Below, in pieces: positions 20,747-21,217 of a stretch of 40,665 nt of DNA. Source of the DNA: Escherichia phage CharmingMan; the sequence record PP925830.1. The stretch is one strand, 5' to 3'. The notes under the pieces are model-generated. The model worked only from the letters and a program-made list of their open reading frames with translations, ran no database searches and had not been told where the DNA came from. Every line of letters begins with the position of its first letter. The stretch's first letter is position 1. The translations under genes and the position numbers were made by a program.

Positions 20747-20787
20747 AACGATCGTTAAAAGCGATCAATCGTGTAAAATTGATCGCT
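20747..20787. promoter_or_regulatory. Palindrome cluster with three GATC sites between the tail-fibre start and the lipoprotein gene
   Basis: AACGATCGTT (20747-20756) and 10-bp inverted repeat AGCGATCAAT (20760-20769) / ATTGATCGCT (20778-20787) with 8-bp spacer; GATC at 20750, 20763 and 20781. Confidence 0.3.
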
Positions 20788-20854
20788 CATATCAATCTGA
20801 CTATTTTTTAAACTCAAATAAAATGGAAGTTCCCGCATAAACAGGAATGTTGAA

Positions 20855-21217
20855 ATGAAACTTTTATTTGCTGCAGCGCTTTTGCTGTTGGCTGGATGTA
20901 CGAACAAACACACAGATAACACATTCCAGATGGATTACCCGGTTGATGCCGCTCGTTTATCGCTGGGTGGTGATATTCACGTAAATATCGACTGTGCCAC
21001 CAGGGAGGTAGATGTTATTTCAGACAGTAGCAATGGAATATTCAGCCGCCATATTAATAAACGGTTAAGTAATATTTGCCATAAAAAAACGGATAAGCTG
21101 AATGTGATTTATCGCTTTAATTCAGCAAAGGGCGTGAAACAAGATATGATTGCGACTCATTATCCGCGCGTTCCTCCCGTGTCAAATTCCAACAAACTGA
21201 GCGATGGGGATTCTTAA
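20855..21217 (+). CDS. Lipoprotein, opposite-strand moron within the tail region
   Basis: MKLLFAAALLLLAGCTNK: signal peptide with lipobox LAGC; AGGA 8 nt upstream; AT-rich; convergent with and overlapping the end of the minus-strand gene 21182-21823. Confidence 0.6.
   Translation: MKLLFAAALLLLAGCTNKHTDNTFQMDYPVDAARLSLGGDIHVNIDCATREVDVISDSSNGIFSRHINKRLSNICHKKTDKLNVIYRFNSAKGVKQDMIATHYPRVPPVSNSNKLSDGDS

Follow-up and report, generated by a model that had tools for sequence, protein, structure and literature searches.

A putative Dam-sensitive OxyR operator upstream of an antisense lipoprotein gene in Escherichia phage CharmingMan

How is a small lipoprotein gene that lies antisense among the late tail genes of a lambdoid phage controlled, and what might its product do? 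The gene considered here encodes 120 aa and occupies positions 20855-21217 (+ strand) of the window, i.e., the whole 40,665-nt stretch of Escherichia phage CharmingMan (PP925830.1) that was analyzed, which is a complete lambdoid phage genome. An earlier note, made from the sequence alone, had described this lipoprotein gene as antisense to its surroundings and overlapping a neighbor, and had proposed that the GATC sites upstream of it form a switch of the OxyR/Dam type. We confirmed the open reading frame (ORF), its lipobox (LAGC), and the overlap, which comprises 36 nt at the 3' end of a 213-aa ORF adjoining the tail genes (21182-21823, - strand; phrog_4524, function unknown) and is annotated in the same way in relatives. 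On its other side, the lipoprotein gene is separated by 126 bp from the divergent side tail fiber gene (19439-20728, - strand). Our overall reading, which we consider reasonably probable from the sequence comparisons described below, is that these 126 bp contain a Dam-sensitive OxyR operator and that it would place a receptor- or TonB-blocking exclusion lipoprotein under epigenetic control.

Three GATC sites and two OxyR-type half-sites

The region contains three GATC sites within 35 bp, as the earlier note had stated, at positions 20750-20753 (GATC-1), 20763-20766 (GATC-2), and 20781-20784 (GATC-3), with distances of 13 bp from the first to the second and 18 bp from the second to the third. 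Comparison with the OxyR half-site consensus, ATAGnTnnnAnCTAT, revealed two candidate half-sites that accommodate all three. The distal half-site X, ATCGTTAAAAGCGAT (20751-20765), holds GATC-1 and has GATC-2 at its right end; it agrees with the consensus at 8 of 10 positions and departs from it solely at the two bases forced by the GATC at each end. Its outer edge lies 22 bp from the start codon of the side tail fiber gene. The proximal half-site Y, ATCGCTCATATCAAT (20782-20796), has GATC-3 at its left end and likewise agrees at 8 of 10 positions, its mismatches being GATC-forced plus one more. X is centered at about -74 and Y at about -43, and together they span about -81 to -36. The gap between them is 16 bp, a spacing that suits one OxyR tetramer (N7, or N16-17 for reduced OxyR).

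The earlier note had stressed a 10-bp palindrome, AACGATCGTT (20747-20756), and a 10-bp inverted repeat, AGCGATCAAT/ATTGATCGCT (20760-20769 and 20778-20787, 8-bp spacer). Both are present, but as we read the sequence, they are by-products of the half-sites and not functional units. X and Y were adopted in their place, since both the conservation among relatives and the base frequencies in unrelated phages follow the OxyR register.

To see what chance would produce, 1000 first-order Markov simulations of the window were carried out. The window contains 160 GATC sites, which is the number predicted by its composition, and at least one GATC triple within 35 bp occurred in 49% of the simulations. 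The earlier argument that the GATC count lies far above expectation therefore fails, and GATC density was set aside as evidence. By contrast, the exact 13/18-bp geometry occurred in 0.5% of the simulations (P = 0.005), and an exact ATCGnTnnnAnCGAT, which in the window is found at half-site X alone, combined with a second half-site (≤1 mismatch) at OxyR-type spacing occurred in 0 of 1000. What exceeds chance is the layout, i.e., the geometry and the paired half-sites, together with its conservation, and not the number of GATCs.

Conservation was assessed among relatives of the phage, the Escherichia phages HK639 and LMessi being kin that are 95-96% identical over the region. A search of genome and viral contig collections with the lipoprotein as query returned 89 loci, from which 69 distinct sequences that share the window's intergenic region were taken as the conservation set. 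All three GATCs are kept at the 13/18 spacing in 67 of the 69. GATC-2 and GATC-3 are invariant, GATC-1 is kept in 68, and in one relative (L037), 4 bp are inserted between GATC-2 and GATC-3. The flanking genes of these relatives are only 76-93% identical, and across the aligned kilobase, variation is lowest in the intergenic region. Within it, the GATCs and the consensus bases are nearly fixed, while the N positions and the spacer vary most. The variable columns of X (20755, 20757-20759, and 20761) are all N positions of the consensus; those of Y are N positions as well (20786, 20788, 20789, and 20792), plus 20787, where the consensus has T. This is the pattern of variation of an OxyR/Dam switch, in which selection holds the GATCs and the consensus bases and leaves the N positions free to vary.

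A separate subfamily with a 122-aa lipoprotein (L068, L073, L077, L078, L087, L090, L091, L093, L097, and L098) has an entirely different intergenic region without GATCs. Its tail-fiber strand carries a strong terminator-like hairpin, CCTCGCTCCGGCGGGGTTTTTT, ∼170 nt upstream of the lipoprotein start, and it has its own TTGAGA/TAAAAT promoter, with TAAAAT at the same distance from the start codon as in the window. In having no GATCs, the subfamily parallels those gtr families that do not have the phase-variation signature.

A promoter scan of both strands from 20400 to 21500 returned a single promoter-like site, a predicted sigma-70 promoter of the lipoprotein gene (+ strand) that consists of CTGACT (20797-20802), 16 bp, and TAAAAT (20819-20824); the scan found no minus-strand promoter for the tail fiber gene. 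Both hexamers are nearly invariant in the 69 relatives. The predicted transcription start is near 20831-20832, and half-site Y abuts the predicted -35 hexamer, which puts the candidate operator directly beside the promoter of the gene it would control. The ribosome-binding site, AGGA (20843-20846, + strand), lies within ACAGGAATG, which is conserved in relatives. An alternative promoter, TTGATC (20780) and TATTTT (20803) separated by 17 bp, would have GATC-3 in its -35 hexamer as in gtr. We judged this arrangement less likely because TAAAAT recurs in the subfamily without GATCs and because the annotation of phage phi80 and the class-wide -10, both described below, fit the downstream promoter.

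Two further observations concern this stretch. The arms of a short inverted repeat, TTCC...GGAA (20830-20847), are conserved, whereas its loop (20837-20840) varies; this repeat overlaps the ribosome-binding site of the lipoprotein gene on the + strand, has a terminator-like score on the - strand, and may be a translational or termination element. In the HK639 RefSeq record (L002:2656-2814, equivalent to 20755-20913 of the window), the lipoprotein gene is not annotated, and a 52-aa ORF that crosses the operator and the promoter is called on the opposite strand instead. This 52-aa ORF is probably spurious.

Recurrence of the cassette in other phages

A scan of viral contigs with a fixed pattern, half-site X with its two GATCs and a third GATC 14 nt on, returned at least 120 loci. 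When the scan was repeated with a free gap (X and a third GATC 4-30 nt away), 84 matches were obtained; the gap was exactly 14 nt in 41 of them, and each other gap that occurred accounted for only one to four. By similarity of their flanks, the 119 matches listed fall into 48 clusters, ∼8 of which look like chance occurrences in GC-rich coding DNA. The scans place the cassette in at least 40 independent phage loci; examples from the series L100-L219 are L127:1607-1949, L108:4644-4986, L116, L130, L136, and L195.

Base frequencies were analyzed for the 47 clusters, among the matches listed, other than the window's own family. The bases that the pattern had left unspecified read CGATC[A/G]AT after GATC-2 and ATTGATC around GATC-3, and then continue as ATC[T/G]nTnnnAnCnAT, which is half-site Y in the OxyR register. 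At least five of the seven free consensus positions of Y are matched in 29 of the 47 clusters, compared with zero to four clusters when the register is shifted, with one exception. A shift of 9 bp upstream (N7 spacing) gives 13 of 47, and two of the seven matches there come from the third GATC that the pattern demanded. A perfect AnCTAT is present in several loci. A -10-like hexamer, TAnnnT, starts at a fixed distance of 34-35 nt after GATC-3, and the class-wide -35 is weak, as expected of activator-dependent promoters.

The position of the following gene is equally regular. In all 13 loci examined by hand, an ORF starts 65-75 nt after GATC-3. With a strict ribosome-binding-site filter, an ORF was found 54-93 nt downstream in at least 19 of the 48 clusters, and the other side yielded seven scattered cases. 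Because ORF starts cluster downstream and are few on the other side, the cassette is directional and tied to the gene downstream of it. Among the matches listed, the commonest such gene encodes the superinfection-exclusion lipoprotein Cor (phrog_1119). Others encode a 40-aa membrane peptide, a 47-aa protein, a signal-peptide TonB_C protein, a family-25 lipopolysaccharide (LPS) glycosyltransferase, a Ner-like regulator, and a Dam-like methyltransferase; Mu-like mom regions are also among the matches.

The cor locus of phi80 (FN582354, L280:257-365) is a clear example, with the full cassette upstream of the gene. The -35, -10, and transcription start annotated for cor in GenBank fit both the class geometry and the promoter predicted in the window. 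Upstream of HK022 cor (L281:255-368), GATC-1 and GATC-3 are lost, making this a natural decayed variant.

Two of the other downstream genes are worth describing. The periplasmic signal-peptide protein at L195:2641-2988 matches Pfam TonB_C (E = 3e-15), and the PHROGs label of its family (phrog_1267), 'Rz-like spanin', looks like a misnomer. The Dam-like DNA methyltransferase gene (MSTPIIPWVGGKRRL...; L104:12093-12140 and L194) is preceded by a GATC triple of the same spacing 33 nt before its start codon, with a further GATC just after, and this triple may serve autoregulation of the methylase.

Within the literature searched, the coverage of which is incomplete, no paper was found that links cor, HK639, or the lipoprotein family to GATC clusters, OxyR, or Dam. 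New here are this instance and the apparent breadth of the cassette, cor included; the mechanism itself is of a known kind.

The lipoprotein and its genomic setting

The lipoprotein begins with the signal peptide MKLLFAAALLLLAGC and has the lipobox LLLAGC, and in an alignment of 43 sequences, Cys15 is at least 90% conserved and the mature protein has two further near-invariant cysteines. Since residue +2 is not Asp, the protein is likely located in the outer membrane. The family comprises 52 clusters from Enterobacter, Escherichia, Kosakonia, Klebsiella, and Franconibacter. Scanning the lipoprotein against Pfam and PHROG returned only 'unknown function' (phrog_25729) and no match to phrog_1119, and a Foldseek search against viral structure models returned three relatives that indicate no function.

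An AlphaFold model built with the 43 sequences has a mean predicted local distance difference test (pLDDT) score of 69, with values of 83-91 in the core (residues 40-90). According to the model, the mature lipoprotein has a fold like that of the TonB C-terminal domain over roughly residues 25-90, complete with the YP motif. Independently of the model, when the family profile was compared with all Protein Data Bank (PDB) sequences, the TonB homolog FusB was the sole match (E = 0.009), with YP..A...G...V.V aligned. None of the 43 family members matches Pfam TonB_C (PF03544) at E ≤ 10. As the Pfam model misses the family, the lipoprotein is better described as a remote relative of the TonB C-terminal domain than as a member of the Pfam family. 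In common with the C-terminal domains of TonB, FusB, and HasB, it has the same order of secondary structure elements and the YP..A...G motif, and its best matches by fold and by profile are to such domains. It differs from them in that the domain stands alone, would be tethered by lipid to the outer membrane, and has no ExbBD-coupled N-terminus in the inner membrane.

The setting of the gene points to superinfection exclusion. Phages phi80 and HK022 use the TonB-dependent transporter FhuA. In the tail-tip host-specificity protein J of the window (22116-25556, - strand), the C-terminal 250 aa are 86% identical to J of phi80 and of a set of HK/mEp phages and 69% identical to J of HK022. In phi80, the slot between the two small ORFs that follow J and the side tail fiber gene is filled by cor, and in the window the same slot holds the lipoprotein gene, on the other strand. 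Cor (phi80, HK022, and mEp phages) and the lipoprotein thus have in common the genomic slot, the triple-GATC cassette upstream, and the context of a phi80-type J, and each appears to be a small outer-membrane lipoprotein with conserved Cys. They differ in that the two have no sequence relation (phrog_1119 and phrog_25729), that Cor is ∼77 aa long compared with 120 aa here, and that the gene in the window lies on the opposite strand and encodes a predicted TonB-C-terminal-like fold. Because slot, control cassette, and phi80-type J are shared, we infer that the lipoprotein is a functional analog of Cor, the exclusion function being supported by this context.

The rest of the neighborhood is as follows. 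Between the 213-aa ORF and the gene for J lies a 100-aa ORF (21820-22122, - strand). On the far side of the side tail fiber gene are the integrase gene (17461-18774, + strand) and a DinI-like ORF (18888-19343, + strand), and other parts of the window encode a Q antiterminator, a cI-like repressor, a primase-helicase, and an endolysin. The DinI-like ORF has ∼70 additional N-terminal residues in comparison with the DinI domain; because relatives annotate an 88-aa DinI (L005:1009-1275 and L007:954-1220), its true start is probably further downstream than 18888. In the close relative phage LLS (L004:1-2629), an invertible tail-fiber segment with annotated inverted repeats and a Fin invertase adjoins the same lipoprotein locus. 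It is a second type of variation, by DNA inversion, at the host-range end of these genomes.

Proposed control, its alternatives, and known OxyR/Dam systems

The architecture that the earlier note had suspected before the lipoprotein gene thus finds support at the level of sequence in the half-sites, their spacing, the pattern of variation, the promoter geometry, and the recurrence. We propose that, in the 126-bp region, an OxyR operator sensitive to Dam methylation is coupled to a promoter that belongs to the lipoprotein gene itself. The 16-bp gap between X and Y would fit the extended binding mode of reduced OxyR, and OxyR binding and Dam methylation of the three GATCs would be mutually exclusive. 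No phage-encoded Dam was found among the ten large early ORFs of the window that were checked. OxyR bound to unmethylated DNA would activate the gene, and methylated DNA would represent the OFF state. Expression in the lysogen would then be set epigenetically, and ON and OFF lineages could be inherited. As for the sign of control, promoter geometry leads us to think activation by OxyR somewhat more probable than repression, because the geometry resembles that of opvAB, where OxyR is essential, and because the class-wide -35 is weak. The preference is a modest one because agn43 and mom are repressed by OxyR and the -35 of the window is fairly good.

The lipoprotein, for its part, would sit at the periplasmic face of the outer membrane and work there on FhuA or TonB coupling, FhuA/TonB being the presumed entry route of the phage and its relatives. 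It could plausibly do so by occupying the TonB box of FhuA or by otherwise interfering with TonB coupling. Blocked TonB-dependent uptake should be costly, which would be a reason for heterogeneous expression; the same argument has been made for opvAB (PMC4652898).

Several points weigh against this proposal. Half-site X was itself specified in the search pattern, which leaves Y, the spacing, and the promoter as the features that the scans recovered independently. The gap of 16 bp agrees with mom but is one base shorter than the 17 bp of gtr, agn43, and opvAB (by reported half-site centers). The -35 hexamer, CTGACT, is fairly good, so the predicted promoter may need no activator, and the same inverted repeats could also fold as RNA. 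For neither this locus nor cor did the literature surveyed contain a report that OxyR binds, that the GATCs are undermethylated, or that expression is bistable. Lysogens of phi80 are reported to exclude robustly, which argues against a large OFF subpopulation, at least for cor.

OxyR could be an ordinary regulator of the gene, constitutive or redox-responsive, with methylation merely tuning its affinity and no heritable ON/OFF lineages, and we consider this unlikely but deserving of attention. In line with it, there is a single tetramer site without the alternative binding positions of gtr and opvAB, the -35 and -10 are both fairly good, and exclusion in cor lysogens appears uniform; the OxyR regulon limits iron uptake under peroxide stress, which would suit a blocker of TonB/FhuA. 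Nevertheless, three GATCs at a single site are also what agn43 has, and that locus is a classic case of phase variation (PMC13076061). Moreover, the GATCs make the half-sites depart from the consensus and yet are kept in 67 of 69 relatives and in dozens of unrelated loci, which argues for selection on the methylatable sequence itself. That the operator serves a different protein, such as another LysR-type regulator, a phage regulator, or SeqA on hemimethylated GATCs, and only happens to look like an OxyR site, strikes us as improbable. LysR-type sites do share a T-N11-A dyad, and GATC-1 and GATC-3, 31 bp apart, would share one DNA face in a way that might suit SeqA. However, at the free positions, unrelated loci reproduce specifically the OxyR consensus, several of them with a perfect AnCTAT, and the sites most similar in sequence are ones for which OxyR has been established by experiment. 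Lambdoid and Mu-like phages, whose regulators differ, both carry the cassette, which favors a host factor.

The most serious alternative to arise from the window alone is that the repeats act as RNA, with the late (minus-strand) transcript forming a hairpin upstream of the tail fiber ribosome-binding site that would serve in termination, processing, or translational control. The minus strand folds with z = -3.4 into a 12-bp hairpin followed by a U-rich stretch, and a terminator-like site was reported there; the one-sided changes at 20761, 20786, and 20787 would retain G-U pairs on this strand, and relatives without GATCs carry a strong terminator-like hairpin at the same minus-strand place. 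We nonetheless find an RNA element distinctly improbable. Relative to the accessory gene, whose direction is that of the late genes in the case of phi80 cor and the opposite one in the window, the element has a fixed orientation and a fixed distance to the promoter and start codon. Class-wide pairing extends over only 7 bp (GATCAAT/ATTGATC), the next position being usually mismatched, and a stem would need neither GATC nor the ATnGnT/AnCnAT pattern. Compensatory double changes were found in only a single sequence, and the stem varies little among the relatives. A chance grouping of GATCs without function, finally, can appeal to the triples within 35 bp that arise in about half of random sequences of the same length and composition. 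Given the rarity of the exact geometry, the failure of any simulation to yield paired half-sites, the retention of the cluster in the relatives, and the recurrence of the same spacing in many unrelated loci, we give it almost no credence.

Beyond the single locus, the Dam-sensitive OxyR reading leads to a broader picture that we offer tentatively, as possible but rather doubtful: a widespread three-GATC OxyR cassette would hold accessory genes under heritable ON/OFF control, and the lipoprotein would be a TonB decoy. The cassette, i.e., a 13/18 operator with a promoter ∼70 nt before the start codon, would be widespread in temperate enterobacterial phages, and we found no description of it. The genes so controlled would include phi80 cor, the TonB-like lipoprotein, small membrane peptides, the TonB_C protein, and the LPS glycosyltransferase, and populations of lysogens would hedge between working receptors and iron uptake on the one hand and phage resistance on the other. 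The lipoprotein might represent a novel type of exclusion protein: resembling the C-terminal part of TonB and held by a lipid anchor, it would serve as a decoy that occupies the TonB box of FhuA or other TonB-dependent transporters. Were this correct, receptor-blocking exclusion by prophages, including the textbook case of phi80 cor, would be epigenetically heterogeneous and not constitutive, which would bear on how lysogens balance iron uptake against phage defense and on how exclusion phenotypes are measured. The gtr and opvAB systems already tie epigenetic heterogeneity to phage resistance. In addition, the cassette offers a simple sequence signature by which phage genomes can be screened for other genes that may be controlled in this way, and a protein family of 'function unknown' would gain a predicted fold and a testable mechanism as a TonB decoy.

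To our knowledge, few Dam/OxyR switches have been described, namely, agn43, mom, gtr, and opvAB. At mom of phage Mu, binding of OxyR (alias MomR) and its competition with Dam are established; the site covers about -99 to -54, with the C activator binding downstream of it, and OxyR acts as a repressor. We compared the window with mom, agn43, and P22 gtr from fetched sequences, the parsing of the Mu region into half-sites being our own. The GATC spacing of mom, 18/13, is the mirror image of the 13/18 in the window, and its half-sites, ATAGAAAACGACGAT-N16-ATCGGTAATACAGAT, have the same 16-bp gap. In both, one half-site has two GATCs and the other has one, and in both a phage gene would be under a host factor. 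The two differ in that the site of the window, at about -81 to -36, touches the -35 hexamer, that its orientation to the gene is reversed, and that the target of mom control is a DNA-modification enzyme and not an envelope lipoprotein.

For agn43, gtr, and opvAB, it is likewise established that OxyR binds the control region and competes with Dam (PMC13076061; PMC3688519; PMC4856963). The agn43 (flu) locus, which lies in prophage-derived DNA (CP4-44), resembles the window in its single OxyR site with three GATCs, and its half-site ATCGTTTATATCGAT is formed like X. Its spacing is 19/13, the gap in ATAGAATAAAACGAT-N17-ATCGTTTATATCGAT is one base longer, and OxyR exerts repression from a position just downstream of the transcription start. 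P22 gtr has the half-sites ATCGGTAACAACGAT, ATAGATAAAAACTAT, and ATCGCTTGTATCGAT at N17 and two GATC pairs, each of 13 bp. X shares its form, TTGATCGnTnnnAnCGATCAA, with gtr half-sites and can be likened to ATCGGTAACAACGAT and ATCGCTTGTATCGAT; when X and its flanks are reverse-complemented, 18 of 21 positions agree with the last gtr half-site. Like the gene in the window, the gtr genes are accessory genes of phages; they change the cell surface and prevent superinfection. They differ from the window in having three half-sites and four GATCs, with ON and OFF states that use alternative binding sites.

A positional counterpart is Salmonella opvAB, whose promoter-proximal half-sites OBSC and OBSD are centered at -75 and -43 (PMC4856963), as compared with about -74 and -43 for X and Y. 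There, the proximal half-site lies immediately upstream of the -35 hexamer, the spacing is described as the canonical one for OxyR in its reduced form, and expression requires OxyR (PMC4856963). OBSB and OBSD match the consensus at 8 and 7 of 10 positions, respectively, with GATC-forced mismatches as in X and Y (PMC4856963), and opvAB controls an envelope trait that confers phage resistance (PMC4856963; PMC4652898). It differs in having four half-sites, four GATCs, and alternative OxyR pairs, compared with the two half-sites and three GATCs described here. The layout in the window thus joins a three-GATC operator of the mom type with a position beside the -35 hexamer of the opvAB type.

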